This document shows positions 160-16,701 of a DNA stretch of 64,000 nt, piece by piece (within the stretch, counting starts at the first letter, position 1; the number at the start of each line of letters is the position of its first letter). The notes under the pieces are model-generated. The model searched no databases and was not told the origin of the DNA. It saw nothing but the letters and a program-made list of their open reading frames with translations. Where the stretch lies: assembly GCA_040881665.1 (NCBI GenBank), contig JBBECT010000004.1:117782-181781 (forward strand), read 5' to 3'. Source of the DNA: Actinomycetota bacterium (lineage in GTDB: Bacteria; Actinomycetota; UBA4738; HRBIN12). Both the position numbers and the translations under genes were made by a program.

Positions 160-1038
160 TTAGCGTGCCTGGATCGACAGCTCCTCCAGCATCCGGCGCT
201 GCCAGTCGACGGTGCGCTCGACCTGGTTGAAGGTGAACAGGTGGAGCGCCCGCACGTCGGCGTTCGCGTCGGCCAAGACCGGAGCGAGATCCTCCAGCAG
301 ACCGTCGGGGCGGTAGCCACCTTTCCGAACGAGGCGGCCGACCGCCCGACGGTTCTTGGACAGGTACCGGGCCGAGCCTCCGACGCCGATCTTCGTCGCG
401 ATCGACAGCAGCTTCGTCAGGTCGGCGACACCGGGCGTCCCCAGGTGCACGGGGAGCGCGATGCCCGAGGCCCGCAACCACTGGACCCACGACGCGATCG
501 CGGTCGGATCCAAACAGAGCTGGGTGGCGATGTAGTCCGCGTGCACCGACTTGTCGCGCAGCGCGGTGCCGAGCACGACCGCATCGATGTCCACGTGCCC
601 CTCGGGATAGCCGGGGATCCCGATCTCGCTCGGTCGCGGACCGGTCTCCTCGATCGCGCGCAGCAGGGCCAGCCCGTCGGGGAACCCGTCGGCGTCGATC
701 GGGTCCCCGCCGACGACGAAGACCGACGTGAGGCCGGCGACCGCGAGTCGCTGCAGCAGCTCGGCCAGATGCGCGCGATCGCGGATCATCCGGGCGGACA
801 GGTGCGGGATCGCGGGGTGGCCGACGGCGGCCATCTTCTCGGCCAGCTCGATCGTGGCCTCGATCCCTTTCGCCGGCGAGGCCGTCACCGTGACCGTGAC
901 GCCCGGGGGAAGGAACGCCGCCTGCTCACCGACGTCGGAGAGCGGGATCAGCTCGAACTTCGGATCCTCGATCAGGCGTCGCAGCGCCACACGTTCGACC
1001 TCGGAGAGCTTCGCGATCCGGGAGCGGCGCAGAGCCAT
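160..1038 (-). CDS. metF: 5,10-methylenetetrahydrofolate reductase (MetF family), 292 aa
   Basis: C-terminal 292 aa of track ORF 160..1944 reads as MTHFR. ATG (CAT on + strand) verified at 1036-1038. The stop abuts the start region of the upstream MttB-family gene, so this is the last gene of the minus-strand chain. Confidence 0.85.
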   Translation of the reverse strand: MALRRSRIAKLSEVERVALRRLIEDPKFELIPLSDVGEQAAFLPPGVTVTVTASPAKGIEATIELAEKMAAVGHPAIPHLSARMIRDRAHLAELLQRLAVAGLTSVFVVGGDPIDADGFPDGLALLRAIEETGPRPSEIGIPGYPEGHVDIDAVVLGTALRDKSVHADYIATQLCLDPTAIASWVQWLRASGIALPVHLGTPGVADLTKLLSIATKIGVGGSARYLSKNRRAVGRLVRKGGYRPDGLLEDLAPVLADANADVRALHLFTFNQVERTVDWQRRMLEELSIQAR

Positions 1039-2579
1039 CAGACGTTCGAGTCCGGGAAGCTCGCCTTCTTCTTCTCGATCCACTCGAGCAGCTCGCCGTC
1101 CTTCGCTTCGTCGATCGGCGGCGGCTCGTACTCGGCAAGCGTCTTCTTCCACAGTGCATTGGCACGCTCGGCGGCGTCCTTGGAGCCCTCGGCCTCCCAC
1201 TGCTCGAAGGAGTTGTTGTCGGCCACCCCCGAGCGGAAGAAAGCCGACTCGAAGTTCGCGAGCGTGTGCGCCGTCCCGAGGAAGTGCTGCCCGGGCCCGT
1301 TCTCGAGGATCGCGTCGATCGCCTGACCGTTCGGCGACAGGTCGACGCCGTTGGCGAACGCCGCCGCCATCCCGCACTGATCGTGGTCGAGCACGAACTT
1401 CTCGTACCCCATCGCGAGCCCGCCCTCGAGCCACCCGGCGGCGTGCAGCACGAAGTTCACCCCGCCGAGCATCGTGGGCTGAAACGTGTTCGCCGACTCG
1501 TAGGCAGCCTGCGCGTCGGGGAGCTTGGAGGCCGTGAGCGACCCTCCGCTGCGGAACGGTACGCCGAGGCGTCGGGCGAGCGCCGCCAGCGAATAGAGCA
1601 CGAGCGCGGGCTCGGGCGTTCCGAACGTCGGCGCGCCCGATTGCATCGACATCGACGACGCGAACGAGCCCATCACGACCGGCGCCCCCGGACGGAGGAG
1701 TTGGACGTAGGTCATCCCGGCCATCGCCTCGGCGAGCGTCTGGGCGACCGCGCCCGCGACGGTCGCGGGACTCATCGCGCCGGCGAGGATGAACGGGGTC
1801 ATGATCAGCGCCTGGTTCGCCTCGGCGTACGCCTTCGCCGCGCCGAGCATCGTCGAGTCCCACACGAGTGGCGAGTTCGCGTTCACCAGGCTCATGACGA
1901 CCGGATGATCCTCGAGGTACGCCGCGCCGAACAGGATCCTGCACATCTCCACGGTGTCCTGCGCGCGAAGGGGGTGGGTCACCGAGCCCATGAACGCCTT
2001 GTCCGAGTAGCGCATGTGCGCGTACACCATGTCGTAGTGGCGCTTGTTGACGGGCAGGTCCACGGGCTCGCAGACCGTCCCGCCCGAGTGGTGCAGGAAC
2101 GGCGCGGCGTACGCGAGCTTCACGAAGTTGCCGAAGTCCTCGATCGTTCCGTACCGGCGTCCCTGGTCAAGATCGTGCACGAACGGCGAGCCGTAGGCCG
2201 GAGCGAGCACGGTGTGCCTCCCGCCGACCTCCACGTTGTGCTCGGGGTTGCGCGCGTACTGCGTGAAGCTCGACGGTGCCGACGCCCGGATCGTCTCCCG
2301 GCACATCCCGGACGGGAAGCGGACACGTTCCCCGTCGACGTCGGCTCCCGCGCCCTTCAGCAGCTCCAGCGCATCGGGCGACTCACGGAACTCGATCCCC
2401 ACCTGTTCCAGGATCGTGTCGGCGTTGTGCTCCATCAGCTCGAGGCCCTCGGTGTCGAGCACCTCGAGCGGCTTGAGCGTTCGCGTGATGTAGGGGATCC
2501 GCTCGGCGGTGGTCGCCGCCCGCGCCGCTTGCCGTGCCGCCCGTCCTCCGCCGCGCCTTCGTCCGGTCGTCTCGCTCAT
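1038..2579 (-). CDS. MttB-superfamily methyltransferase without in-frame amber codon (non-pyrrolysine; glycine betaine/quaternary amine:corrinoid methyltransferase, MtgB-like), 513 aa
   Basis: C-terminal 513 aa of track ORF 1038..4499. ATG verified at 2577-2579. Uninterrupted reading frame with the TIM-barrel MttB fold. The start overlaps the upstream activase stop by 4 nt (ATGA). Confidence 0.8.
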   Translation of the reverse strand: MSETTGRRRGGGRAARQAARAATTAERIPYITRTLKPLEVLDTEGLELMEHNADTILEQVGIEFRESPDALELLKGAGADVDGERVRFPSGMCRETIRASAPSSFTQYARNPEHNVEVGGRHTVLAPAYGSPFVHDLDQGRRYGTIEDFGNFVKLAYAAPFLHHSGGTVCEPVDLPVNKRHYDMVYAHMRYSDKAFMGSVTHPLRAQDTVEMCRILFGAAYLEDHPVVMSLVNANSPLVWDSTMLGAAKAYAEANQALIMTPFILAGAMSPATVAGAVAQTLAEAMAGMTYVQLLRPGAPVVMGSFASSMSMQSGAPTFGTPEPALVLYSLAALARRLGVPFRSGGSLTASKLPDAQAAYESANTFQPTMLGGVNFVLHAAGWLEGGLAMGYEKFVLDHDQCGMAAAFANGVDLSPNGQAIDAILENGPGQHFLGTAHTLANFESAFFRSGVADNNSFEQWEAEGSKDAAERANALWKKTLAEYEPPPIDEAKDGELLEWIEKKKASFPDSNV

Positions 2580-4615
2580 GCGGTCTCGTCCTTTCCAGAG
2601 GTCGCATCGTCGGAGGCGGCGCGGCGCCGGGAGCGCCCACGTCGACCTCGGTCCGTCGTGGCACCCGTTGCGGTCCGCTCGGGCAAGGACACCGCGGTCC
2701 CCAAGCGCGCGTACGGATCGGTCGCGTGCGGGATGCCCATCGCGTTCACGAAATGCTCCTGGAACCTTGGTTCCACCGCCGTCTCGATCTTCTCGATCCG
2801 GCGGACGACGTCTTCGATCTCGGTCCGCGCCGAGCGGTTGAGCAACGCGATCCGCGCTCCCGTCCCGGCGGCGTTCCCCGCGGCGGTGACCCCGGACGGG
2901 TCGCAATCCGGAACCATCCCGAGGACCAGCGCATGCACCGGATCGATGTGCGCTCCGAACGCGCCCGCCAGCCGGATCCGGTCGACGGTTTCGATCTGCA
3001 GATGATCCATCAGCAGGCGGCACCCGGCCTCGAGCGCGGCCTTCGCGAGCTGGATCGCGCGCACGTCGTTCTGGGTGATCACCAACCGCGGCTCGCCGTC
3101 GTGGAGCACGTAGGAGAACGTCCGTCCGTCCGGGACGATCCGCTCCGAACGCCCGGCGAGCGCGCCGTCGATCGTCCCGTCCGCGGTGAGGATCCGCGCG
3201 AGGAACATCTCGGCCATCACCTCGATGATCCCCGACCCGCACACGCCGGTCACCGACGCGCCCTTGAAGCCCGGCTCGTCCGACCAAGCGTTGCGACCGA
3301 TCACGCGGAACCGCGGCTCGAGCGTCTCGGGATCGATCCGGACCCGCTCGACCGCGCCGGGCGCGGCGCGCTGGCCGCAGCTGATCTGCGCTCCTTCGAA
3401 CGCGGGACCGGTCGGGCTCGATGCGGCGAGCAGTCGGTCGCGGTTGCCGAGCACGATCTCGGCGTTCGTCCCGACGTCGACGAGCAGCTCGACCCCCGCC
3501 CGGAGGTACGGACCTTCGGAGAGCACCATGCCCGCCGTGTCCGCGCCCACGTGCCCGGCGATGCACGGCAGGACGTAGACGCGGGCGCCGGGGTGGACCG
3601 CAAGGTCGAGCTCCTCGGCCCGCAGCCGCACCGCCTCGTCGACGGCGAGCGCGAACGGCGCTCCGCCCAGCTCGGTCGGATCGAGGCCGAGCAGCAGATG
3701 GTGCATGATCGGGTTCCCGACGATCGTGAGCTCCAGGATGTCGGTCCCGTCGATCTCCGCGGTGGCCGCGAGCTCGGCGAGGAGCTGGTTGAGGCACTCC
3801 CGGACGACGGCCGTCAGGTCGGCCTCCGAACCGGGGTTCATCATCACGTACGACACCCGGCTCATCAGATCCTCGCCGAAGCGGATCTGCGGGTTCATCG
3901 ATCCCGCCGATGCGAGCACCTCGCCGGTCGTCAGGTCGCACAGGTGCCCCGCAACCGTCGTCGAACCGACGTCGAACGCGACGCCGACCGCACGGTCGTG
4001 GAAACCCGGCCAGATCCCGGTGATCGTCGCCCCGTCGTGGACGGCGACCGTCACGGCCCACTTCCCCTCGCGCAGCGTGCGTTGGAGGTCGCGGAGCACC
4101 TGGAGATCGGCGGTGAGCCCGGTGAGCGCCCACTCCGTCTCGAGCGCCTCCTCGAGCCGCCGCAGATCGCCGGAGGACTCTCCGAGGTCGGGTTCCCGGA
4201 CCTCGACGTAGTACAGGCGCACGACCGGGTCGATCTCGATCGGGTGCGCGTCCGCCTCCTTGCGCACGACCTGGCGATGGACCTGGCTGTCGGCGGGAAC
4301 GTCGACCACGACGTCGCCGAGCACCTCGCAGGCGCACCCGAGCCGGCGGCCGGACGCGAGCCCCTGCTCCCGCGCGTAGGTCTCCTCGGTCCGCGTGAAC
4401 GCGTTCAAGTGATCGGCGGCGGAGGTGATCTGGTGCTTCGCGTGCTCCCCTTCGCTCACCGTGATCTGGCACCGGCCGCAGATCCCCCGTCCGCCGCACA
4501 CCGAGTCGAGGTCGACCCCGAGCGAACGGGCCGCATCGAGGAGGTTCGTCCCCGCCGGGAACCGGCCCCGCTTGCCCGACGGGGTGAAGACGACGAGCGG
4601 CTCGGCCGTGCTCAC
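2576..4615 (-). CDS. RACE/RamA-type ATP-dependent reductive activase of corrinoid proteins (N-terminal plant-type 2Fe-2S ferredoxin + ASKHA ATPase, COG3894/DUF4445-like), about 680 aa
   Basis: A CGGRGICGRCQ 2Fe-2S motif lies near the N-terminus and a long ASKHA-like ATPase body follows. Proposed start is GTG at 4613-4615 (VSTAEPLVVF...), which overlaps the stop of the upstream pterin-binding gene by 4 nt. The alternative start is the upstream ATG at 4717. Confidence 0.75.
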   Translation of the reverse strand: MSTAEPLVVFTPSGKRGRFPAGTNLLDAARSLGVDLDSVCGGRGICGRCQITVSEGEHAKHQITSAADHLNAFTRTEETYAREQGLASGRRLGCACEVLGDVVVDVPADSQVHRQVVRKEADAHPIEIDPVVRLYYVEVREPDLGESSGDLRRLEEALETEWALTGLTADLQVLRDLQRTLREGKWAVTVAVHDGATITGIWPGFHDRAVGVAFDVGSTTVAGHLCDLTTGEVLASAGSMNPQIRFGEDLMSRVSYVMMNPGSEADLTAVVRECLNQLLAELAATAEIDGTDILELTIVGNPIMHHLLLGLDPTELGGAPFALAVDEAVRLRAEELDLAVHPGARVYVLPCIAGHVGADTAGMVLSEGPYLRAGVELLVDVGTNAEIVLGNRDRLLAASSPTGPAFEGAQISCGQRAAPGAVERVRIDPETLEPRFRVIGRNAWSDEPGFKGASVTGVCGSGIIEVMAEMFLARILTADGTIDGALAGRSERIVPDGRTFSYVLHDGEPRLVITQNDVRAIQLAKAALEAGCRLLMDHLQIETVDRIRLAGAFGAHIDPVHALVLGMVPDCDPSGVTAAGNAAGTGARIALLNRSARTEIEDVVRRIEKIETAVEPRFQEHFVNAMGIPHATDPYARLGTAVSLPERTATGATTDRGRRGRSRRRAASDDATSGKDETA

Positions 4616-5535
4616 GGTGGCGCCGGGTCGGTACCCGCTCCCCGGGCGCGCCGGCGAGCGCCGCGCTCCCGACGACCGCCGCCGTCCGCCGAGGGCTCCC
4701 GGTAGGTGCGGATCCACGCGATGCAGTCGGCGTCGTTGCCCATCATCACGTCGGCGGCCATCACGGCCTGGCGGATCTCTGGATGCAGGGGACTCGTGAT
4801 CGCCGAGGTCAGCCCCGAAGCGATCGCCATCGACAGGAACGCCGCGTTCAGACCACCACGGTTCGGCAGGCCGAAGCTGACGTTCGACGCACCGCAGGTG
4901 GAGTTCACGCCGAGCTCGGTCCGCAACCGCCGGACGAGCTCGAACACCTGCCGGCCCGCGGTGCGCATCGCCCCGATCGGCATCACGAGAGGGTCGACGA
5001 CGATGTCCTCGCGGCCGATGCCGTGATCGGCGGCACGCTCGACGATCCGCTTCGCGACGGCGAATCGCTCGTTCGGGTCCTGGGAGATGCCGGTCTCGTC
5101 GTTCGTGATCGCGACGACGGCCGCCCCGTGTCTCGCCACGAGCGGCAGGACGGCCTCGAGACGCTCTTCCTCGCCCGTCACCGAGTTCACGAGCGCCTTG
5201 CCCTGATAGGCGGACAGGCCGGCCTCGAGCGCAGCGACGATCGACGAGTCGATCGAGAGCGGGACGTCGGTCAGGGACTGCACGAGCTTGATCGTCTCCG
5301 CCAGGATCGCCGGCTCGTCCGCGAGCGGGATCCCCGCGTTGACGTCGAGCATCTGCGCGCCCGCCTCGACCTGGGCGTTCGTGTCGACGATCACGGTGGA
5401 GAAGTCGCCGGCCTTCATCTGCTCGGCGAGCGTCTTGCGGCCGGTCGGGTTGATCCGCTCCCCGATCACCACGAACGGACGGTCGAACCCCAGGACGACC
5501 TCCTTCGTCGCCGAGCTGAGGACGGTCTCGGTCAT
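4612..5535 (-). CDS. pterin-binding methyltransferase (methylcorrinoid:tetrahydrofolate methyltransferase, MtgA/MtrH/AcsE-like), 307 aa
   Basis: Pterin-binding (DHPS-like) domain. ATG verified at 5533-5535, with a GGAGG ribosome-binding site 5-9 nt upstream on the minus strand. Start M is residue 129 of track ORF 4612..5919. Confidence 0.8.
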   Translation of the reverse strand: MTETVLSSATKEVVLGFDRPFVVIGERINPTGRKTLAEQMKAGDFSTVIVDTNAQVEAGAQMLDVNAGIPLADEPAILAETIKLVQSLTDVPLSIDSSIVAALEAGLSAYQGKALVNSVTGEEERLEAVLPLVARHGAAVVAITNDETGISQDPNERFAVAKRIVERAADHGIGREDIVVDPLVMPIGAMRTAGRQVFELVRRLRTELGVNSTCGASNVSFGLPNRGGLNAAFLSMAIASGLTSAITSPLHPEIRQAVMAADVMMGNDADCIAWIRTYREPSADGGGRRERGARRRARGAGTDPAPP

Positions 5536-5843
5536 GCGGGGCCTCCGTCGGCGCGCCGGCCGCCGCTGCGGATCAGGGCGCGCAGCGCCTCGTCGGGATG
5601 CGCGGCCTCGATCCGTTCCGCCTCCGCATGCGCCTCGGCCTCGAGGTCGTCTCCGCACGGGCGGGCGTCGCGCGCCCACTCGGCCAGATACTCGTCGGTG
5701 CCGATCAGTCCGATGCTCGTCGCGGCGGCGTCGATCGCCTCCTGGAACCGGTCGGTCAACTGGACCCGCGCCGACTCCCTCCCCTGCTTTGCCGTGACCT
5801 GCGCGGGGATGTCGCGCCAGCGGATCACCGTGAGCTCGGCCAT
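5532..5843 (-). CDS. hypothetical protein, 103 aa, acidic and soluble, translationally coupled between the corrinoid protein and the pterin methyltransferase
   Basis: Normal amino-acid composition, not Arg/Pro-rich. It starts 5 nt after the corrinoid-protein stop and its stop overlaps the start of the downstream gene by 4 nt. No recognisable motif. Confidence 0.55.
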   Translation of the reverse strand: MAELTVIRWRDIPAQVTAKQGRESARVQLTDRFQEAIDAAATSIGLIGTDEYLAEWARDARPCGDDLEAEAHAEAERIEAAHPDEALRALIRSGGRRADGGPA

Positions 5844-5848
5844 CGCGA

Positions 5849-6547
5849 TCAGGCCCCCGCCGCCGCGCGGCGCGCGAGCACGAGCGCCTGCGCCGTCTCG
5901 GCGGCGATCGCGGCGTCACGGCAGTAGGCGTCGGCGCCCACGGTCTTGCCGAACTCCTCGTTCAGCGGCGCGCCACCCACCAGAACGATGTAGTCCTCGC
6001 GGAGGCCCTTGTCGACGAGCTCGTCGATCACGACCTTCATATACGGCATCGTCGTCGTCAGCAGCGCCGACATCCCGAGGATGTCGGGCTCGTGTTCCTC
6101 GAGCGCCTCGAGGTAGTTCTCCACCGGATTGTTGATGCCGAGATCGACGACCTCGAACCCGGCGCCTTCGAGCATCATCGACACGAGGTTCTTCCCGATG
6201 TCGTGGATGTCGCCCTTGACGGTGCCGATCACGACCTTGCCGACCCGTTCCACACCGGTCTCGGCGAGCAGCGGCCGGAGGATCTCCATCCCGGCCTTCA
6301 TCGCGTTCGCGGCCAGCAGCACCTCCGGGACGAACAGGATGCCGTCGCGGAAGTCGATCCCGACGATCCGCATCCCATCGACCAGGGCGTCGTTCAGCAC
6401 CCGGTCGGCCGCCCATCCGCGACCCAGGAGGATGTTCGTTCCCTCGACGATCTCGTCGGCCATGCCGTCGTAGAGATCGTCGTGCATCTGCTTGGTGAGC
6501 TCGTCGTCGGGGAGGGTCGACAGGTCCAGTTCCTGCTCGTCGCTCAT
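5849..6547 (-). CDS. cobalamin (B12)-binding corrinoid protein (MtgC/MtbC/MtmC-like), 232 aa
   Basis: The B12-binding DxHxxG motif is present as DIHDIGKN, with a Rossmann-like B12-binding domain and an N-terminal cap helix domain. Confidence 0.85.
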   Translation of the reverse strand: MSDEQELDLSTLPDDELTKQMHDDLYDGMADEIVEGTNILLGRGWAADRVLNDALVDGMRIVGIDFRDGILFVPEVLLAANAMKAGMEILRPLLAETGVERVGKVVIGTVKGDIHDIGKNLVSMMLEGAGFEVVDLGINNPVENYLEALEEHEPDILGMSALLTTTMPYMKVVIDELVDKGLREDYIVLVGGAPLNEEFGKTVGADAYCRDAAIAAETAQALVLARRAAAGA

Positions 6548-6556
6548 CGGGCGCTC

Positions 6557-9016
6557 CTAGCTCCTCGGGCGTTCGTTCTTGGGGTCGAACAAGGGATCGG
6601 CCGCGACCGTCGCGGCATACCGCTCGTCGAAGTACTCGATCCGGACGGGGGTTCCCTCGACGGCCAGCTCGACCGGCAGGTACCCGTAGGCGATCCCTCG
6701 ACCGATCGAGTAGCCGTGGTTGGCCGAGGTGACGTAGGAGACCACCGCTCCCTGTGCGTCGCGGATCGGCTCCTTGCCGAGCACGACCGCGGACGGATCG
6801 TCGAGGGTCATACACGCGAGCTTGTGGCTCGAGCCACCTCGGGCGATCCGCTCGAGCGCGTCGCGGCCCTGGAACCCGCCCTTGTCCATCCGCACCGCGA
6901 ACCCGAGGCCGGCCTCGAACGGATCGTGCTCGGTGTGGATGTCCTGACCCCAGAGGCGGTAGCCCTTCTCCAGGCGCAGGGAGTCGAACGCCCCGAGGCC
7001 CGCCGCCACGATCCCGTGCTCACGCCCCGCGTCGAAGAGCAGCTCCCAGGCCCGCGCGCCCATCTCGAACGGGCCGTACACCTCCCATCCGAGCTCACCG
7101 ACGTAGGAGATCCGCTGGGCGAACACGGGCACCTCGCCCAGGTGGATCGGCCGTCCGGTGAGGTACCCGAACGCCTCGTTCGACACGTCGTCGGTCGTCA
7201 CCGCCGACAGCACGTCGCGTGCACGCGGCCCCCAGAGTCCGAAGCAGAACGAGCTCGTCGTGCGATCGACGATCCCGACCCGCTCACCGTCGCGGGCCTG
7301 CGCGCGCAGCCACGCGAGGTCGTGCATCGCCGATCCGCCACCGGTCACGACCTGGAACAGGTCCTCGGCCAGCCGCGTCACGGTCAGGTCGCACCGGATG
7401 CCACCCCGGGGCGTGAGCATCGCCGTGTAGATCACCGACCCGACGGCCCGGTCGATCCGGTTCGCGCAGATCCGCTCCAGGAATGCGAGCGCGCCGGCAC
7501 CACCGACCGCGAACTTTGCGAACGGCGTGATGTCGAACAGCGCGACACGTTCGCGGGTCGCCAGGTGTTCGGCGCCCTCGATCGGCGACCAGTGCTGCGC
7601 TGCCCATCCCGATCGCCGCTCCCACGGGTCGCCACGGAGCAGGTCCCCGTTGGACGCGAACCATTGGGGGCGCTCCCACCCCGCTCCCACCACGAACTCC
7701 GCGTCGAGCGCGGCGTGCGCCTCGTAGGCGGGGGTCAGGCGGAGCCTGCGTGGGCGCTCCATCTGCTGGCGGGGATGGATGATGTCGTAGACCTCGCGGT
7801 AGTTCTGCGCACCGCGTTCGCGGACGTACGGCGGGGTCGTCATGTACGGGTAGAACCGGTTCGCGTCGGCCTCGGCGAGGTCCATGCTCGGCTCGCCGGT
7901 CGCGATCCACTCGGCGACCTGACGGCCCATGCCGCCTCCCTGCGTGACCCAGACCGCTTCGCAGATCCAGAATCCGCGCACGTCGGTCGACTCGCCGACG
8001 ATCGAGCCCATGTCGGGCGTGAACGAGAACATCCCGTTGATCGCGGTGGACAGGTCGATCCGATCCGTCAGGGCCGGCATGATCCGGGTCGATTCGCGTT
8101 CGCACTCGGAGAAGTGCTCCGGCGTGAACGGCATCACCGACGGCATAGGACCGGGCTCGGACGGGTGGCGGATGTCTTCCGGGTCGGTGAGCACGGGTTC
8201 GTGGCGATAGTTGCCCAGCGCGTAGCGGTCCTCGCGCTGGCGGTAGTACAGCGAGACGTCCTGGTGACGCAGGATCGGGTGAGCAATCTCGTCTGTCTGA
8301 CCCGCGAGCTCGGGGAGCGGCTCGGTCCACACGAGCTGGTGTTGCACGGCCGCGAGCGGGATCGGCACCCCCGCCATCGCCCCGAGCCGCGGCCCCCAGA
8401 TCCCCGCGCACACGAGCACCTGCTCGCACTCGACGTCGCCCCGGTCGGTCCGCACACCGTGGACGTGTCCCTCTCGGATGTCGAACCCGGTGACCGTCAC
8501 GCCACCCTCGAACGCGGCGCCCCTGGCCTCCGCCTTCCGCGCGTACGCGGCGGCGAGACGAACGGCCTTCGCAGCTCCGTCGGAGGGGACGAAGAGCGAG
8601 CCGTGGATCGTCGACGGGTCGAGCAGAGGGATCTTCGCGGCGGTCTCGCCGGGGTCCAACAGCTCGGCACCCTCGATCCCGTAGGCGCGGGCGAACCCGA
8701 GACGGCGCTTCAGCTCCTCCATGCGCTCGTGTGTAGTCGCGATCTCGATCCCGCCGACGCCGTACCAGCCCGGCTGCCCGTCGAGAGCGAGCTCGGCGTA
8801 CTGGGCGACCGTGTCCTGCGCGATCCGGCACATCGTCCGGGATCCGTTCGTCTGGAACACCAGTCCCGGGGCGTGTGAGGTCGACCCGCCGGTCTCGAAA
8901 AGCGGTCCCTGATCGAGAACGAGGACATCCGTCACGCCGAGTTCGGCCAGGTGGCGGGCGGCGCTCGTGCCCACGATCCCCGCTCCCACGATCACCAGTT
9001 GGGCCCGATCGCGCAT
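6557..9016 (-). CDS. dimethylglycine oxidase/dehydrogenase (FAD-dependent oxidase domain fused to a GcvT-like folate-binding aminomethyltransferase domain), 820 aa
   Basis: N-terminal dinucleotide-binding motif VIVGAGIVGTSAARHLAELG and a C-terminal GcvT-like domain. ATG verified at 9014-9016. Start M is residue 39 of track ORF 6557..9130. Confidence 0.8.
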   Translation of the reverse strand: MRDRAQLVIVGAGIVGTSAARHLAELGVTDVLVLDQGPLFETGGSTSHAPGLVFQTNGSRTMCRIAQDTVAQYAELALDGQPGWYGVGGIEIATTHERMEELKRRLGFARAYGIEGAELLDPGETAAKIPLLDPSTIHGSLFVPSDGAAKAVRLAAAYARKAEARGAAFEGGVTVTGFDIREGHVHGVRTDRGDVECEQVLVCAGIWGPRLGAMAGVPIPLAAVQHQLVWTEPLPELAGQTDEIAHPILRHQDVSLYYRQREDRYALGNYRHEPVLTDPEDIRHPSEPGPMPSVMPFTPEHFSECERESTRIMPALTDRIDLSTAINGMFSFTPDMGSIVGESTDVRGFWICEAVWVTQGGGMGRQVAEWIATGEPSMDLAEADANRFYPYMTTPPYVRERGAQNYREVYDIIHPRQQMERPRRLRLTPAYEAHAALDAEFVVGAGWERPQWFASNGDLLRGDPWERRSGWAAQHWSPIEGAEHLATRERVALFDITPFAKFAVGGAGALAFLERICANRIDRAVGSVIYTAMLTPRGGIRCDLTVTRLAEDLFQVVTGGGSAMHDLAWLRAQARDGERVGIVDRTTSSFCFGLWGPRARDVLSAVTTDDVSNEAFGYLTGRPIHLGEVPVFAQRISYVGELGWEVYGPFEMGARAWELLFDAGREHGIVAAGLGAFDSLRLEKGYRLWGQDIHTEHDPFEAGLGFAVRMDKGGFQGRDALERIARGGSSHKLACMTLDDPSAVVLGKEPIRDAQGAVVSYVTSANHGYSIGRGIAYGYLPVELAVEGTPVRIEYFDERYAATVAADPLFDPKNERPRS

Positions 9017-9050
9017 CCGGTTCCCCGCGCTCCTTAAGCTTCTCGCCCGT

Positions 9051-9070
9051 GCGACGGCGTACGCCGTCGC
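9051..9070. promoter_or_regulatory. 20-bp perfect palindrome GCGACGGCGTACGCCGTCGC in the ALDH-DMG oxidase intercistronic gap
   Basis: Seen in the sequence. On the minus-strand transcript it would form an 8-9 bp GC stem, but no U-tract follows, so it is more likely an operator or an RNA processing/stability hairpin than an intrinsic terminator. Confidence 0.35.
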
Positions 9071-9131
9071 CGGCACCGATGGTCGGCCCGCGTGGTTGCG
9101 CTGACAACCCACCGGTTGCGACCTCAGCAAC

Positions 9132-10586
9132 TCAGCTCTCGCCGAGGTTGAGCACCACGGTCTTGAGCTCGGTCAGGCGCTCCATCGAGTAGCGCCCTCC
9201 GACACGGCCGATACCGCTCTTGGAGCCCGCGCCGCCGCCGAAGGGAAGGTGGGACTCCCAGTAGTTGGTGCCCTCGTTCACGTTCACCCACCCGGTGCGC
9301 ACCCGCTCGGCAAACCGTAGCCCCCGCGCCAGGTCGGCGGTGAAGATCGCCGACAGCAGCCCGTACTCCGAGTCGTCGACGAGCGCCACCGCCTCGTCCT
9401 CGCTGCGGATCGTCGAGACCGGAACAACCGGACCGAACGTCTCCTCGCGCGCCACCTGCATCCGGTCGGTCACGCCGTCGAGGACCGTCGCCTCGAAGAA
9501 CAGCTCGCTGCCGTGCTCGGGCGCACGACGGCCGCCGGTGACGACGGAGGCACCTGCCTCGACCGCTTCGGCCACGTGCCGCTCGGTCTTGTCGGCGACA
9601 CCGGCGTTGTTCACCGGACCCATCGTGGTCGCGTCGTCCAAGGGATCGCCGAGGTGGATCTTCTCCGCGACGGCGGCGGAAAGCTTGCCGACGTACACGT
9701 CGTGGACGGTTTCGTGGACGAGGATCCGTTCACCCGCCGTGCAGCTCTGTCCGGCGTTCAGGAAGCACGCCGTCAGCGTCGCCTCGACCGCCGCGTCGAT
9801 GTCGCCGTCCTCCATCACGACGAGCGGTCCGTTGCCACCCATCTCCAGCAGCAGATCCTTGCCGGCCGCGCGCTCCGCGACGCGATGACCGGTCGCGATC
9901 GAGCCGATGAACCCGATCGCGCTCGTCCCGGGATTCGCGGCGACCTCGTCGCCGACGACCGCGCCCTCGCCGGTCACCATGTTGAAGACGCCCGCCGGCA
10001 GGTCGGCCTCGACGATGCACTCGGCGAAGCGAACGGCGCACACCGACGTCGAGGGCGCGGGCACCCAGACGATCGCGTTCCCGTAGGCGAGCGCCGGGGC
10101 CAGGATCTCCCCCGGCATGGTGTACGGCCAGTTCCACGGACTGATGATCCCGACGACGCCGCGCGGCACGCGGTAGAGCAGCACGCGCTTGTTCGCATCG
10201 AACGACGGCGGCATGATCCCGTCCATTCGGATCGCGTCGGCCGCGGCCATCTCGAAGTAGCCGAGTAGTTCCTCGACCTCGTCGTTGGCCTCGGCGGCCA
10301 GGGGCTTGCCCTGATCGATCGCGAGCGTGCGCGCGAGCTCGATGCGGTTGGCGTCGATCGCCGCGGCGATCCGTCGCATCCCTGCCGCCCGGTCGAAGGC
10401 CGACATCCCGGCCCACCCACGACGCGCACGCTGGGCAGCGCCGATCGCGCGCTGCACGTCCCCGCGCGTGCCGCTGGGCACGGTTGCGACCACCTCGCCC
10501 GAGCGCGGGCTCGTCGCTTCGAGCGTCGCGCCGTCGGACGCGTCGGCCCACGTTCCGTCGATGTACAGCTTCAGGTTCTCGCTCAT
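9132..10586 (-). CDS. NAD(P)-dependent aldehyde dehydrogenase, candidate betaine-aldehyde dehydrogenase by context, 484 aa
   Basis: ALDH superfamily with catalytic Cys in QSCTAG and an ELGGNGP motif. ATG verified at 10584-10586, with GGGGAG upstream. Confidence 0.85.
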   Translation of the reverse strand: MSENLKLYIDGTWADASDGATLEATSPRSGEVVATVPSGTRGDVQRAIGAAQRARRGWAGMSAFDRAAGMRRIAAAIDANRIELARTLAIDQGKPLAAEANDEVEELLGYFEMAAADAIRMDGIMPPSFDANKRVLLYRVPRGVVGIISPWNWPYTMPGEILAPALAYGNAIVWVPAPSTSVCAVRFAECIVEADLPAGVFNMVTGEGAVVGDEVAANPGTSAIGFIGSIATGHRVAERAAGKDLLLEMGGNGPLVVMEDGDIDAAVEATLTACFLNAGQSCTAGERILVHETVHDVYVGKLSAAVAEKIHLGDPLDDATTMGPVNNAGVADKTERHVAEAVEAGASVVTGGRRAPEHGSELFFEATVLDGVTDRMQVAREETFGPVVPVSTIRSEDEAVALVDDSEYGLLSAIFTADLARGLRFAERVRTGWVNVNEGTNYWESHLPFGGGAGSKSGIGRVGGRYSMERLTELKTVVLNLGES

Positions 10587-10679
10587 CGCTCCCCGTCCCC
10601 GCAACGGCGACGGGGGCGGCCCATGGACCGCCCCCGTCTCACCGCCGTGCTTCCCGTGTTCGGACCGTCCTGTTCGTGC

Positions 10680-11690
10680 TCAGGCCGCCGGCATCCAGGA
10701 GTCGACGACGTCCTGGTTGGCGTCGATCCAGGTCTGCGCGGCCTCCTCGGGATCCGCTCCCTCCTGCAGCTCGAGGGCGACCGAGTTCTGGTCCTCTTCG
10801 GTCCACTGGAAGTTGGAGAGGAACTCGAACGCCGCCGGGTCCTTCTCCGCGAAGTCCACGCTGAACGCCTTGTAGAGCACGTCGTCGGCGTAGTCGCAGT
10901 CATAGCCCGCCGCCTCGTCCGGATCGTCGAGCGCGATCTGCTCGCACTCCTCATCGAACTCCGGCAACTCGACCTCGACGAGGTCGTACTTCGCATTGGC
11001 CCACTGCGGGGTCCACCAGTACATGACGATCGGCTCTTCGTTCTTCACGGCGTTGTCGAGCGCCGACAGCGACGCGGTCTCCGATCCGGAGTACACGACC
11101 TCGAGGTCCAGTCCCAGACTCTCGATGATCGCCTCGTCGAAGATCGAGTACGTCGTGTCCGCACCGAGGAAGCGGCCCTTGTCGCCCGTCTCCGCCGTTG
11201 AGAACGCGTCGGCCTCGGTGAAGCCCTCGTACGTGGCGTACTCGGGGGTATCCTCGACGACGTAGGACGGCACGAACCATCCGATGTTGCCGGTGATGCC
11301 GAGCTCGCCTCCGTCGACGACGGTGCCGGCCTTCTCGATGTACTGCGACCGGTCCTTCGCATGGCCGGAGGGCCAGACCTCGAGCGTCGCGTCGACATCA
11401 CCCGAGGCCATCGCGGGGAACTGCGCGGATTCGTTGATCTCCTGGAGCTCGACCTCGCAACCCATCTCCTCCTGCATCACCTGTTGGACGACGACCGCGT
11501 TCGCCTCGGCCCCGATCCACGGGTTCACGGCGATCACGATCGGGTCGTCGGTGGAGCACTGCGCGACGCTCGCCGTGTCGCCGTCGCCTCCGGTGTCCTC
11601 GGGTGTGTCCTCGACGTCGCTACACGCGGCGCCCACGAGCGCGAGTCCCGCCACGCAGGCGACGAGCGTCAGCCACTTCGAACCCTTCAT
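10680..11690 (-). CDS. glycine betaine/proline betaine ABC transporter substrate-binding lipoprotein (OpuAC/ProX family)
   Basis: Signal peptide with a lipobox (LVGAAC S) followed by an OpuAC-like body. ATG verified at 11688-11690, with a GGAGGGAGG ribosome-binding site. Confidence 0.8.
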   Translation of the reverse strand: MKGSKWLTLVACVAGLALVGAACSDVEDTPEDTGGDGDTASVAQCSTDDPIVIAVNPWIGAEANAVVVQQVMQEEMGCEVELQEINESAQFPAMASGDVDATLEVWPSGHAKDRSQYIEKAGTVVDGGELGITGNIGWFVPSYVVEDTPEYATYEGFTEADAFSTAETGDKGRFLGADTTYSIFDEAIIESLGLDLEVVYSGSETASLSALDNAVKNEEPIVMYWWTPQWANAKYDLVEVELPEFDEECEQIALDDPDEAAGYDCDYADDVLYKAFSVDFAEKDPAAFEFLSNFQWTEEDQNSVALELQEGADPEEAAQTWIDANQDVVDSWMPAA

Positions 11691-11787
11691 GCGTCCTCCC
11701 TCCGTCGGCACGGCCGCTGCCGCTGCCGCTGCCTCACCCCGGCCGTCGCCACCGCTCCGGCCGCTGCTTCCTGGTACGCCATTCGAG

Positions 11788-13878
11788 TCATCTCGAGCTC
11801 TGATCGCCCGATCCGCCCGATCCGCCCGATCCGTTCGCTCCGTTCGCTCCGCCCACGATCGCGCGCAGCTTGGTCCACGGCGCGAACCCCATCTCCCCGA
11901 CCGGCCCGCGCAGGGTGCGCGGCGCCGATCCCATCGCCTGCGTGATGCGATCGAGCACGATCGCCAGCAGCAGGATGCACGTACCGGCGACCACCCCGCG
12001 GCCGATCTGCTGCTTGCCGAGCGCGAACACCACCTCTTGTCCCAGCCCGGCCGCGCCGATCAGCCCGGCGATGATCACGACGGACAGGACCATCATGATC
12101 GTCTGGTTGATCCCGAGCAGGATCGTCGGTCGCGCGAGCGGCAGTTCGACCTTCGCGAGCATCTGCTTCGAGGTCGCACCGTACGAGCGACCGGCCTCGG
12201 TGATCTCGGCCGGAACCTGGCGGATCCCGAGGTTGGTCAGCCGCACGCCCACGGGCAGCGCGTAGATCAGCGACGCGATGATCGCCGGGACGCGTCCGGG
12301 CTCGAAGAGGAGCAGCACCGGCACCAGGTAGACGAATGCGGGCATCGTCTGCATCGCGTCGAGCACGGGCCGTGACCACCGCTCGAACCGGTCGCTGCGC
12401 GCGGCGAGGATGCCGAGCGGGATCGCGAACGCCGCGGTGATCGCGACCGCGACGAGCACCTGGGTAAGGGTCCCCATCGACAGATCCCACATCCCGAGGA
12501 ACCCGAGCGCGGCGATGCACGCGAAGCACCCGATCGCGAGCTTGATCCCGGACACCCGCCACGCGAGCAGGGCGAACGCACCCGCGACCATCCACCACGG
12601 GACGCCGACGAACAGCGCCTCCAGCGGATCGAGGACGTAGATGATGAGGAAGTCGTTGATCGCGCCCGTGACCCCGGCAAGGTTGGTCTGGGACCACTCG
12701 ACGATCGCGTTCGCCGGCGTGGCGACCGAGGTCTCGAGCGCCTCGGGGAACACCTGCTGGCGGAGCACCTCCCGGCCGATCAGCACCGCCGCGACGGTCA
12801 CCACGACCGCTGCCACCACTTGCATCCGCCGGGTCACCACGAGTCCGCCGATCCGCAGGGGGGGCGTCGTGCGGCGATCCCGGTCGCTCCAGGCGGTCGT
12901 CACGCGATCGAGCACGATCGCCATCACGACGATCGCGATCCCGCCGTTGAGCGCCTCCCCGACGTTGAAGTCCTGGAGACCCTCGATCACCGCCTGACCG
13001 AGTCCCCCGGCGCCGATGAACGCGGCGATCACGACGAGGCCGAGCGCCATCATGATCGTCTGGTTCACCCCGAGCATGATCGAGGGCTTGGCCATCGGGA
13101 TCTGCACCGACCGCAGCTTCTGCCGTTCGGTCGCACCGAAGGAATCGGCCACCTCGAGCGAGGTCTCCGGAACGTTGCGGATCCCGAGCGCGGTCAGCCG
13201 GATCGCGGGCGGCAGGGCGAACGCGAGCGTGGCGAGCAACGCCGGCGGGGCCCCGACCCCGAACAGCAGCACGAACGGCAACAGGTAGGAGTAGGCGGGA
13301 ATCGTCTGCATCGCGTCGAGGATCGGCCGGAGGGCCCGCTCGACGCGGGGACGCCGCCCCGCCCAGATCCCCAACGGGATCCCGACCAGTACGGCGAGTG
13401 AGACCGACACGATGATCAGGGCGAGCGTCTCGAGGCTCGCCTCCCACACGCCGAGCAGCCCGAAGCTCGCGACGCCGAGGCCGGCGAGCAGCGCCATCTT
13501 CCAGCCCGCGAGCACCCCCGCGAGCGCTCCCGCCCCGACCACGAGGCCGAGCCAGGTCATCCGCTCCAACGCGGCCACCGTGCTGTCGATCGCCGCCTCG
13601 ACCGCGTCCGAGATCGGCGTCAGGAACAGCGTGAACAACGGGCTGGTGCGGGAGTTCTCCACCGTCCAGTCGCGGAACGCATCCAGTGGAGCGGTGACGT
13701 CGATCACCAACGACTCGGGGAACCCCGCGCGCAGCCATACGAGCCCGATCACCGCGACCACGACGGCGACCACCGCCCAAGCGATGCGACGCGGCCAGGG
13801 GCTCGCCGCTCGATGGAACACCGCCGGCGCGACCTCGCCCACCACGGGGGACGGCGTCCGCGGCGGAGCGATCGCCAT
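11788..13878 (-). CDS. glycine betaine ABC transporter permease, tandem-fused double ProW/OpuAB domain, 696 aa
   Basis: Two consecutive ABC-2 type permease domains each carrying the EAA-like loop. The C-terminal low-complexity tail [17 protein letters not shown] is encoded by tandem 9-nt repeats. Confidence 0.85.
11802..11855 (-). repeat. in-frame degenerate 9-nt tandem repeats (about 6 units: gatcgcccg atccgcccg atccgcccg atccgttcg ctccgttcg ctccgccca) encoding the [15 protein letters not shown] tail of the fused ProW permease
   Basis: Seen in the sequence at the 3' end of CDS 11788-13878. Confidence 0.5.
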
Positions 13879-13881
13879 CCG

Positions 13882-14895
13882 CTAGCGCTCCTCGACCATC
13901 GCGCCGAGCACCCGCGACCGATCCACGATGCCGAGCACCCGCTCGTCCTCGACCACGCGCAGCGTGAGGTCTTCGTCGACGACGAGCGGCAGCAGCTCCT
14001 GCACGACGGTCGTGGGTGCGACATCCGGTCCGTAGCGGCGTCCGTCCGTTGACGGCGGCGCCACCATGATCGAACGGGCCGTGAGCACGTGGGCGCGCGG
14101 AACGTCGCGGACGAAGTCGGCAACGTAGTCGTCGGCGGGAGCGGACACGACCTCCTCGGGGGTTCCGACCTGGACGAACCCGCCGTCTTTCATGATCGCG
14201 ATCCGGTCGCCGAGCTTCAGCGCCTCCATCAGGTCGTGGGTGATGAAGACCATCGTCTTGCGGAGCTCGCGCTGCAGGCGGATCACCTCCTCCTGCATGT
14301 CGCGGCGGATCAGCGGATCCAGGGCACTGAACGGCTCGTCGAACAGCATGATCTCCGGATCGGTCGCGAGCGCTCGGGCGAGCCCGACGCGCTGCTGCAT
14401 CCCACCGGAGAGCTCGTCGGGGTAGGACTCGCCCCAGCCTCCGAGTCCGACCACCTCGAGAACCTCGTTCGCGCGCGCGGTGCGGGCGTCTTTGTCCACC
14501 CCTTGCACCTCGAGGCCGAACGCGGCGTTGTCGACGATCCGCCGGTGCGGGAACAGACCGAAGTGCTGGAACACCATGCTGACCCTCGTCCGGCGGAGCT
14601 CCCGCAGACGATCTGCGCTCAGCTGCAGGATGTCGTCGCCGTCGATCGCCACGCTGCCGGCGGTCGGCTCGATCAGCCGTGAGATGCATCGCACGAGCGT
14701 GGACTTCCCGGAGCCCGACAGCCCCATCACGACGAAGACCTCGCCGGTCCCGACGTCGAACGAGACGTCCCGGACGGCGGCGACACAGCCGGTCTTCTCC
14801 AGCAGTTCGGCGCGGGCGAGGTTCGCGTCCGGCGAGCCGATGATCCGTTCGGCCTTCGGACCGTAGACCTTCCACACGTCACGACACGACAGCAT
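13882..14895 (-). CDS. glycine betaine/proline ABC transporter ATP-binding protein (ProV/OpuAA) with C-terminal CBS domains
   Basis: Walker A motif GLSGSGKST and signature LSGGMQQRV. The N-terminus VWKVYG aligns with ProV LYKIFG when the start is ATG at 14893-14895. The track's alternative start is GTG at 14961. Confidence 0.85.
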
Positions 14896-15036: not shown

Positions 15037-16701
15037 TCACGAGGCCTGCTGATGCCGGTAGAACCCGACCTCCTCCGGGGGAAGGGGTGTGTTGCCGAGC
15101 AGCAGGTCGGCGGCCTTCTCCGCGACCATCATCACGGGGGCGTAGATGTTGCCGTTCGTGACGTAGGGCATCACCGAGGCGTCGACCACCGACAGACCCT
15201 CGGTGCCCCGAACCCGCATCGTCAGCGGATCGACGACGGCGAGCTCGTCGGTTCCCATCTTCGCCGTGCACGAAGGGTGCAACGCCGTCTCGCCCTCCCG
15301 CGCCACCCACTCGAGGATCTGCTCGTCGGTCTCGACCGCCGGCCCCGGCGACAGCTCGCCGCCGTCGAACGGAGCGAACGCCGGGCGGCCCAGGATGTCG
15401 CGCGCGACGTCGATCGCCTCGACCCACTCGCGGCGATCCTGGTCGGTCGACAGGTAGTTGAACCGGAGCGCCGGATGCGTCCACGGATCACGGCTGGTGA
15501 TCTTCACCGTCCCCCGCGCATCGGAGTACATCGGGCCGATGTGCACCTGGTAGCCGTGGTCCCCGGCGGGAGCCGACCCGTCGTAGCGAACCGCGACCGG
15601 GAGGAAGTGGAACATCAGGTTTGGGTAGGCCACCTCGTCGTTGCTCCGTACGAACCCTCCGGCCTCGAAGTGGTTCGTCGCGCCGAGACCCGAGCGGAAC
15701 ACGAGCCACTGGAACCCGATCCACGGGCGGTTGCGCCACTTCAGACCCGGTGCGACCGACACCGGCTGGGTACAGGCGTGCTGGATGTAGACCTCGAGGT
15801 GGTCCTGAAGGTTCTCCCCGACGCCCGGCAGGTCCGCGACCATGTCGACCCCGAGCGCGCCGAGCTCGTCCGCTGCGCCGATCCCCGACAACTGCAGCAG
15901 CTGTGGCGAGTTGATCGCCCCTCCGCACAGCACGACCTCCCCGGCGCGAACCCGCTTCGGCGAGGTCCCCAACCCGTGGACGTATTCGACGCCGACGGCA
16001 CGCGACCCCTCGAACAGGATCCGTGTGACGAACGCACGGGTGCTGACCTCGAGGTTGGGACGATGCCGGACCGGGTGGAGGTAGGCGCGTGCGGCCGAGA
16101 GACGACGGCCATGGTGCACGTTCCGGTCGAAGGGCGCGAACCCCTCCTGGCGGTAGCCGTTGACGTCCTCGGTCAGGGGATACCCCGCCTGCTGCACGGC
16201 CTCGAAGAACGCCCCGAACAGGGGGCTCGTCGCCGGACCGCGCTCGAGCGCGAGCGGGCCCGCGTGGCCGCGGAACGGATCCTCGAGCTCGGCCGCGAGG
16301 CAGGACTCCATCCGCTTGAAGTACGGCAGGCAGTGCGCGTAGTCCCATGTCTCCATCCCCGGATCCGCGGCCCACCGCTGATAGTCCAACGGGTTCCCGC
16401 GCTGGAAGATCATGCCGTTGATGCTGCTCGAGCCGCCGAGAACCTTCCCCCGCGCGTGGTAGATCCGGCGCCCGTTCATGCGTGGCTCGGGCTCGGACTC
16501 GTACTTCCAGTCGTAGAACCGGCTCCCGATCGGGAACGTGAGCGCCGCGGGCATATGGATGAAGACGTCCCAGAGATAGTCGGGCCGGCCCGCTTCGAGC
16601 ACCAACACCCGGTTCGAGGCGTCGGCGCTCAGTCGGTTCCCGAGCGCGCTCCCCGCCGAGCCGCCGCCCACGATCACGAAGTCGTACTGCGTCGCAGTCA
16701 C
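15037..16701 (-). CDS. betA: choline dehydrogenase (GMC oxidoreductase)
   Basis: FAD motif [18 protein letters not shown] and extensive collinear similarity to E. coli BetA along the whole length. GTG start at 16701 with a GGAAGGGG ribosome-binding site 5 nt upstream. Confidence 0.9.

Follow-up and report, generated by a model that had tools for sequence, protein, structure and literature searches.

What can be the function of a small protein whose gene is wedged between those of a corrinoid protein and a pterin methyltransferase, and whose databank name is that of a virulence factor? This question is raised by an open reading frame (ORF) on the minus strand, at positions 5532..5843, of a 64,000-nucleotide (nt) stretch of an Actinomycetota genome (assembly GCA_040881665.1, contig JBBECT010000004.1), hereafter called the window. 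The ORF starts with ATG and encodes 103 amino acids (aa) followed by a TGA stop, and VF is used here as the name of this 103-aa PF13769 protein of the window. A first-pass annotation, made from the sequence letters, had proposed VF as an accessory factor of the demethylase complex, for example a corrinoid-protein chaperone or a folate/complex-assembly factor, two readings that are given less probability here. The general part of this proposal stands, as VF was found to be a conserved accessory component of a corrinoid methyltransferase cluster, but the strongest evidence, namely the fusions of VF homologs to the reductive activase RACo, points to the reactivation module, which the annotation had not named.

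Corrinoid methyltransferases are sometimes oxidized to the Co(II) state, and enzymes of the RACo/RamA type use ATP and an electron delivered by an Fe-S center to bring them back to Co(I). The reading favored here, with a confidence that falls just short of even, is that VF would be an accessory subunit of this ATP-dependent reductive reactivation module for the Co(II)-corrinoid protein. VF would take part in a system that comprises an MtgB-like MttB enzyme, the corrinoid protein MtgC, the pterin methyltransferase MtgD and a RACo/RamA-like activase, and within this system it would belong to the repair module. VF would attach to RACo on or beside its N-terminal [2Fe-2S] domain and aid the ATP-dependent reduction of inactive Co(II)-MtgC to Co(I), serving as an adaptor that either links up the electron donor, a task normally shared with DUF1638, or recognizes the corrinoid protein. 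The physical association of VF with RACo is inferred from sequence data, and the exact step, i.e., electron entry vs. substrate docking and recognition of Co(II)-MtgC, is speculative. This reading is favored because VF is fused in some bacteria to the electron-entry end of RACo, because VF lies near the corrinoid and RACo genes more constantly than near the genes of the substrate- or folate-side enzymes, because DUF1638, its usual neighbor, is the second protein that genetics has connected with reactivation, and because minimal cassettes exist that contain neither a pterin methyltransferase nor MttB.

Fusion partners and gene neighborhood of VF

A fusion of VF to RACo was found in the cultured isolate Terrarubrum flagellatum 7MK25, which has a complete genome. 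In this strain, the corrinoid gene and DUF1638 are followed by the gene of a 760-aa VF-RACo fusion protein, WP_342364319.1 (locus L167, 8001-10283, on plasmid NZ_CP091854.1), in which residues 8-92 match PF13769 and the rest consists of Fer2, RACo_linker, Raco_middle and RACo_C_ter. The VF part ends with ...SGGRETPEH and the activase part starts with FVFFSPSGKRG; the junction amounts to about 5 residues, and there is essentially no linker, since the end of VF directly abuts the start of the activase. The protein is annotated only as 'virulence factor', so that some 660 residues of reductive activase go unnoticed under this label. Metagenomes yielded three more in-frame VF-RACo fusions, each different from the others (P0173, P0271 and P0350). 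An AlphaFold2 (AF2) model of P0173, which covered VF, Fer2 and the linker domain and was based on an alignment that mixed fused and separate homologs, had a predicted local distance difference test (pLDDT) score of about 90 across the VF-Fer2 junction, 62-69 at the Fer2-to-linker junction and a predicted template modeling (pTM) score of 0.60. The model suggests that VF may pack against the 2Fe-2S domain. Some other apparent fusions of VF (P0150 and P0270, and L019 and L069 from long-read MAGs) were rejected as frameshift or assembly artefacts when their sequences were read.

The gene neighborhood of VF was compared among 160 loci, 80 from species-representative genomes and 80 from metagenomes (with a deliberately divergent query alignment), which were annotated by tblastn with the window proteins and the proteins of annotated Sinorhizobium and Azoarcus records. 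This sample is biased to relatives of the two query sets, and its counts thus describe the sampled lineages rather than the whole PF13769 family. The recurrent gene order is corrinoid protein, DUF1638, VF, optionally MetV and MTHFR, pterin methyltransferase and RACo, often together with MttB and MTHFR, and this cassette was found in Actinomycetota, Chloroflexota, Alpha-, Beta- and Gammaproteobacteria. The gene directly upstream of VF is DUF1638 in 131 of the 160 loci, the corrinoid gene in 10 and RACo in 1, with a contig end in 10 and another gene or none in 8. The ORF is kept in the 160 related loci, so a lack of conservation in syntenic clusters, by which the annotation had allowed its proposal to fail, was not found. 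A further count covered the genes within 8 kb of VF in those 63 loci that extend at least 6 kb to either side of it: the corrinoid gene was present in 63, RACo in 61, DUF1638 in 59, the pterin methyltransferase in 59, MTHFR in 52 and MttB in 47. The minimal cassette, Corr-DUF1638-VF-RACo with no pterin methyltransferase or MttB nearby, was observed in L030, L040, L054 and L167; in the first three of these, all from alphaproteobacterial metagenome-assembled genomes (MAGs), VF and RACo are adjacent but separate genes. A few PF13769 members are orphans in unrelated contexts (L144 and L155).

The locus comparison also showed that the place of VF is normally a two-gene slot. The gene usually located between the corrinoid gene and VF is about 650 bp long and encodes DUF1638 (PF07796), for example at 7327-8013 in L009 and 7280-7999 in L066. 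DUF1638 is absent both from the junction of the corrinoid gene and VF in the window (5844-5848) and from the whole 64-kb window, where the best tblastn match had an E value of 0.8. Six close relatives (L012, L017, L024, L036, L046 and L058) also have no DUF1638 in the cluster, whereas sister loci with the same flanking genes (L005, L007, L011 and L031) retain it, and the same direct junction occurs independently in four marine loci (L091-093 and L115). Judged from gene order, DUF1638 is cleanly lost from the cluster of the window and its closest relatives. What the annotation, made from one sequence, could not have seen is that this slot is usually occupied by DUF1638 followed by VF, the first of which is lost here. 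Since intact VF occurs in loci without DUF1638, VF is kept with all its invariant residues where the cluster lost DUF1638. A fusion of the pair, DUF1638-VF (P0213), exists among the family representatives.

Several observations on individual loci were made in passing. In L025 and L034, a divergent cassette of the order Corr-Pterin-RACo-[DUF1638]-VF, with VF as the last gene, encodes a corrinoid protein about 50% and a RACo about 34% identical to those of the window; this may be a paralogous corrinoid system in which VF is present as well. L015, from a long-read MAG of Acidimicrobiia, contains two tandem Corr-DUF1638-VF-Pterin copies (6707-9166 and 9902-12361) with the same identities to the window proteins, either a real duplication or an assembly artefact. 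Between the pterin methyltransferase and RACo, the Sinorhizobium meliloti locus L084 encodes a 112-aa protein with no significant Pfam match (15058-15396), and the roseobacter locus L168 encodes, in the same gap (8472-9740), a glyoxalase-fold protein and a 224-aa protein without a Pfam match. L084 lies on CP090106.1, a 3.72-Mb record that is labeled 'Sinorhizobium meliloti plasmid pSymB' and bears bmt as well as the mtg cluster; the record seems to be mislabeled and to represent the chromosome.

The VF gene, its operon and the family PF13769

The geometry described for the ORF by the first-pass annotation was borne out when the sequence was read. The corrinoid gene ends with a TGA at 5851-5849, and after a 5-nt spacer the ATG of VF follows at 5843-5841 (...GCC TGA TCGCG ATG GCC... 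on the minus strand), with a G-run 10-14 nt upstream of this ATG. At its 3' end (...GGAGGCCCCGC ATGA CC...), the TGA of VF at 5534-5532 shares 4 nt with the ATG of the pterin methyltransferase at 5535-5533, which is preceded 7 nt upstream by GGAGG. The flanking genes are also as described: the upstream gene encodes a corrinoid protein with B12-binding_2 and B12-binding domains, and the downstream gene a Pterin_bind/PRK07535 methyltransferase.

The description of the product as acidic, of normal composition and without a transmembrane segment agrees with the data. The GC content of VF at codon positions 1, 2 and 3 (the last referred to as GC3) is 0.76, 0.55 and 0.90, a pattern shared by the flanking genes (GC3 0.91-0.93). 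The protein has a pI of 4.76, with 20 aspartate and glutamate residues vs. 13 lysine and arginine residues, and contains no hydrophobic segment (the maximal Kyte-Doolittle mean over 19 residues is 0.8). Differences between VF and 13 related loci fall on codon positions 1, 2 and 3 in numbers of 333, 236 and 559, and the AF2 model of VF has a pLDDT of 93. VF is 100% identical to an NCBI protein from a MAG that is annotated 'virulence factor [Actinomycetota bacterium]', and GCA_040904315.1 carries an identical 20-kb stretch in which the protein is already annotated 'virulence factor'. A non-coding spacer at 5532-5843, which codon statistics might have revealed, is ruled out by composition, homology and substitution pattern, the composition being of the coding type. 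In this high-GC genome (about 70% GC), plus-strand ORFs of 100-450 codons overlap real genes, for example the 450-codon ORF at 4783-6135 (+), and one antisense frame shares the high GC3. These long antisense ORFs were rejected as genes and regarded as compositional artefacts, homologs being found only for the minus-strand frame; the two plus-strand ORFs that were searched against Pfam (2534-4705 and 1266-3005) gave no match.

The genes of the window operon, all on the minus strand, are listed from the first to the last gene in the direction of transcription.

15037..16701, minus strand: GMC oxidoreductase, choline dehydrogenase-like, first gene of the catabolic block (GMC_oxred_N/C; GC3 0.91)
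10680..14895, minus strand: glycine-betaine-type (OpuA-type) ABC transporter as a whole (Pfam OpuAC, BPD_transp_1; ABC_tran)
13882-14895, minus strand: ATPase of the ABC transporter (ABC_tran)
11788-13878, minus strand: permease of the ABC transporter (Pfam BPD_transp_1)
10680-11690, minus strand: OpuAC binding protein of the ABC transporter (Pfam OpuAC)
9132..10586, minus strand: aldehyde dehydrogenase, betaine-aldehyde dehydrogenase-like, 484 aa (Pfam Aldedh; NCBIfam BADH below cut-off)
6557..9016, minus strand: dimethylglycine oxidase/dehydrogenase-like protein, 819 aa (Pfam DAO, FAO_M, GCV_T and GCV_T_C)
5849..6547, minus strand: corrinoid (cobalamin-binding) protein, MtgC-like, 232 aa (Pfam B12-binding_2 and B12-binding; best NCBIfam MtgC, below cut-off)
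5532..5843, minus strand: VF, 103 aa (Pfam PF13769)
4612..5535, minus strand: methyl-tetrahydrofolate:corrinoid methyltransferase, MtgD-like, 307 aa (Pfam Pterin_bind; NCBIfam PRK07535, 351.6 bits vs. a cut-off of 259)
2576..4615, minus strand: RACo/RamA-like ATP-dependent reductive activase, 679 aa (Pfam Fer2, the N-terminal 2Fe-2S domain, RACo_linker, Raco_middle and RACo_C_ter, the ASKHA domain)
1038..2579, minus strand: MttB-superfamily substrate:corrinoid methyltransferase, MtgB-like, 513 aa (Pfam MTTB, E 4.5e-223)
160..1038, minus strand: MTHFR-like (MetF2-like) protein, 292 aa, last gene of the operon (Pfam MTHFR, 39 bits)

An MtgC-type corrinoid protein, MtgD, a RamA/RACo-like activase and an MttB-family enzyme are all four encoded in this one operon, which is, as far as its gene content can tell, the actinobacterial form of the aerobic cobalamin-dependent glycine-betaine demethylase/split methionine synthase. 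The OpuA-type transporter, the GMC enzyme, the aldehyde dehydrogenase and the dimethylglycine oxidase-like protein would fit a role in choline/betaine catabolism. The MttB and corrinoid proteins of the window score below the NCBIfam equivalog cut-offs for MtgB and MtgC, and the operon showed no gene for a homocysteine methyltransferase. From VF to the end of the operon, each gene overlaps the next by 1-4 nt; since genes across the whole operon overlap or abut, tight coupling is not peculiar to VF. A search with Rfam at the gathering threshold gave no match in the 64-kb window and thus no cobalamin riboswitch near this B12-dependent operon. Elsewhere in the window, a Rieske and Ring_hydroxyl_A oxygenase alpha subunit of 382 aa is encoded at 30159-31307 (+); from its domains, it could be an O2-dependent N-demethylase of the GbcA/CntA/Stc2 type, which would represent a second route for methylated amines.

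The search against Pfam that the annotation had recommended assigned VF end to end to PF13769 (79.7 bits at a cut-off of 25, E 2.1e-22; residues 9-91 to model positions 3-81 of 81). VF thus belongs, as had been surmised, to a family of undefined function, whose name carries no traceable functional information. No NCBIfam model matched VF, and 30 diverse PF13769 members matched no other Pfam family even at E = 5. A word-indexed search returned 2021 homologs of VF at E<=1e-3; the family forms 1197 representative clusters at the 50% identity level, and at least 7996 homolog matches were obtained when a roseobacter PF13769 member was used as the query. Among 105 representatives at the 50% identity level, the positions conserved in at least 90% are, in window numbering, W9, R10, D11, P13, Q15, V16, L29, R32, F33, A36, D38, A41, Y52 and W56, and VF of the window keeps all of them. 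The family shares with VF a length of about 100 aa, an invariant WRDIPxQV hairpin, an RFxxAxDxAA helix and the genomic context, and nothing sets VF apart from it, the only local peculiarity being the missing DUF1638 gene next to it. VF is therefore an ordinary member of a catalogued family, and it is not a new protein either, since GenBank already contains the identical sequence.

No cofactor or catalytic motif was seen in VF. Its invariant residues W9, R10, D11, P13, Q15, R32, F33, D38, Y52 and W56 appear to be of the surface type, as expected of a binding or adaptor protein. The single cysteine, C63, was rejected as a catalytic or metal site: it is present in 61% of the 105 representatives, and it is missing in both halves of P0121, a metagenomic representative of 214 aa that is a tandem VF-VF protein. 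The tandem may be a sign that VF works as a dimer and can do without C63. The family has no solved structure and no significant fold match; VF itself matched no PDB entry by sequence or fold and showed no likeness to known B12 chaperones or adenosyltransferases.

Weighing of the possible functions

Several points weigh against the assignment of VF to the reactivation module. The gene immediately downstream of VF in the 160 loci is mostly the pterin methyltransferase (86), MetV (30) or MTHFR (22), and RACo in only 5, the rest being contig ends (11) and other genes or none (6). In roseobacters, VF heads a VF-MetF2-MtgD operon, as seen in Pseudorhodobacter and in the loci of a multispecies Rhodobacterales protein. 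The VF-RACo fusions are rare and come from one apparently narrow alphaproteobacterial group, and the contact of VF with Fer2 is a putative one, read from the pLDDT of a predicted model. The RACo-type activases of anaerobes (Carboxydothermus RACo and methanogen RamA) are not known to need VF, and the need for it can thus not be universal. The cluster of the window lineage, moreover, is without DUF1638, which contradicts an obligate DUF1638-VF pair here.

The downstream neighbors are the main argument for a different role, in which VF would be a factor of the methyl-tetrahydrofolate (methyl-THF) branch, i.e., a subunit or scaffold coupling MtgD (and MetF2/MetV) to the corrinoid protein, for example by stabilizing an MtgC:MtgD complex or by channeling methyl-THF to MTHFR. 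The pterin methyltransferase, MetV or MTHFR directly follows VF in 138 of the 160 loci, the stop of VF overlaps the start of MtgD as ATGA in the window, and the roseobacter operon has the same composition of VF, MetF2 and MtgD. In split clusters (L084 of S. meliloti, and L109, L151 and L159), VF stays with MetV-MetF-MtgD-RACo and not with Corr-DUF1638. However, these split-off blocks also hold RACo, Corr-DUF1638-VF-RACo cassettes exist without a pterin methyltransferase or MTHFR within 8 kb, and all genes of the window operon are coupled equally tightly. The only apparent VF-Pterin fusions (P0224 and L006) were discarded as probable artefacts, since they either are frameshifted or stem from long-read MAGs. 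Nor is VF simply a partner of MetV, because the window operon contains VF without MetV. A role in the methyl-THF branch is accordingly considered unlikely, although it is the strongest of the alternatives.

It is distinctly improbable that VF is a chaperone for the loading or handling of cobalamin, which would deliver the cofactor to the corrinoid protein or keep MtgC, whether as the apoprotein or in its Co(II) form, in a receptive state; this is one of the examples given by the annotation. The constant presence of the corrinoid gene within 8 kb in all 63 well-flanked loci is in line with such a role, as is the position of VF directly after the corrinoid gene in the window and 9 other loci, and a ligand site could be made up of the aromatic and charged residues that are invariant. 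Against it speak the absence of any sequence or fold likeness to known B12 chaperones or adenosyltransferases or of a PDB match, and the fusions, which join VF to RACo and not to the corrinoid protein.

Slightly less credit is given to the view that VF is an obligate partner of DUF1638, both forming one functional unit, and that VF of the window is a leftover in the course of losing its function. The stop of DUF1638 and the start of VF often overlap in the 131 loci in which the two are neighbors, and the fusion P0213 joins them in one chain. Since DUF1638 was lost from the cluster of the window lineage, though it may be encoded elsewhere in the genome, an obligate pair is contradicted here: VF of the window retains every invariant residue and a normal coding composition, and the subclade of L012, L017, L024, L036, L046 and L058 as well as the marine loci L091-093 and L115 have an intact VF with no DUF1638 in the cluster. 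Finally, a literal virulence factor, for which the Pfam and PGAP name is the only argument, is hardly credible, as PF13769 is carried by Actinomycetota, Chloroflexota and Proteobacteria of soil, fresh water and the sea, most of which are MAGs of free-living bacteria, as the gene forms part of an operon of C1/B12 metabolism, and as no paper tying PF13769 to virulence, or mentioning the family, was found in the literature searched. The name, given as 'virulence factor' by PGAP and as 'cvfA/B/C family virulence factor' by JGI, appears to be a misnomer; the label is unsupported here and should not be used in counts of virulence genes in metagenomes.

The assignment of VF to the reactivation module can be extended to the family as a whole, though with somewhat less confidence than for VF itself: PF13769 would then be an unrecognized and widespread part of the machinery that keeps cobalamin-dependent methyltransferases reduced in O2-exposed bacteria, docking on the [2Fe-2S] domain of RACo, with or without DUF1638, and linking the activase to an electron donor or to Co(II)-MtgC.

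Comparison with known systems

Among the known ways of returning Co(II) cobalamin to the cycle, the reactivation domain of MetH with flavodoxin, or with methionine synthase reductase in animals, is a functional analogy only. It has no likeness to VF in sequence or fold and works by reductive methylation with S-adenosylmethionine, not by ATP-driven reduction. MetV, a MTHFR C-terminal-domain protein and small partner of MetF, adjoins VF in many proteobacterial clusters (VF-MetV-MetF-MtgD-RACo), but it belongs to another family and is absent from the window operon. The RACo/RamA activases are encoded in the same operon as VF, and in some Alphaproteobacteria VF is the N-terminal domain of RACo. 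Unlike them, VF matches PF13769 only and has one non-invariant cysteine; lacking both the ASKHA ATPase domain and an Fe-S motif, it cannot be counted as an activase. No VF domain or VF partner is known for the characterized RACo and RamA enzymes of anaerobes.

The closest counterpart of the window operon is the aerobic MtgBCD system of Ruegeria pomeroyi, described in 2025, in which MtgB, MtgC and MtgD work with RamA and DUF1638 for B12 reactivation and with MetF2 for the oxidation of methyl-THF (Mausz et al., 2025, PMC12478193). This MtgBCD/split-MetH system, which was foreshadowed by genetics in Phaeobacter inhibens (Price et al., 2018, PMC5764234), has only recently come to be seen as a major aerobic route by which marine and soil bacteria demethylate glycine betaine and make methionine (PMC12478193). 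PF13769 is mentioned neither in these two papers nor in a 2025 preprint on the same system, and its being a constant component of the MtgBCD/split-MetH cassette, like its fusion to RACo, appears to be unrecorded in the literature searched. The published data may nevertheless contain it. In R. pomeroyi, SPO1861 (UniProt Q5LSA7), an 'uncharacterized protein', has the genes of MetF2 (SPO1862) and MtgD (SPO1863) as neighbors; cells grown on N-osmolytes yielded 7 of its peptides and the succinate/ammonium control none, and it was significantly increased on carnitine (log2 3.0) and on succinate plus glycine betaine (log2 4.0), with no significant rise on choline or when glycine betaine served as the carbon source (Dataset S1, PMC12478193). 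Its position is exactly that of VF in Pseudorhodobacter and in the loci of the multispecies Rhodobacterales protein. From gene order, SPO1861 is probably a PF13769 homolog. R. pomeroyi was not among the results of the homolog search and the cluster look-up with PF13769, and searching texts for SPO1861 gave no result.

DUF1638 (PF07796; PMC5764234, PMC12478193) is the known protein most similar to VF in its situation. Both are small proteins of undefined mechanism encoded beside the corrinoid protein and occasionally fused to each other, and DUF1638, which is found together with the RamA-like activase, has a presumed role in the reactivation of B12. They differ in that DUF1638 belongs to an unrelated family of about 200-230 aa with conserved cysteines, has been linked by genetics to methionine auxotrophy and is absent from the window. 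For the question of how aerobes keep the cobalamin of MtgBCD as Co(I) despite O2, only RamA and DUF1638 have been named so far, and VF, as a third conserved protein of the cassette with at least several thousand sequences, is a concrete and testable candidate for a missing part of the repair module. The PF13769 gene should therefore be included in the reconstitution or heterologous expression of glycine-betaine demethylases. If VF does act in reactivation, the aerobic MtgBCD/split methionine synthase would be a system of at least six proteins, which would explain why purified MtgBCD and RamA might not suffice alone.

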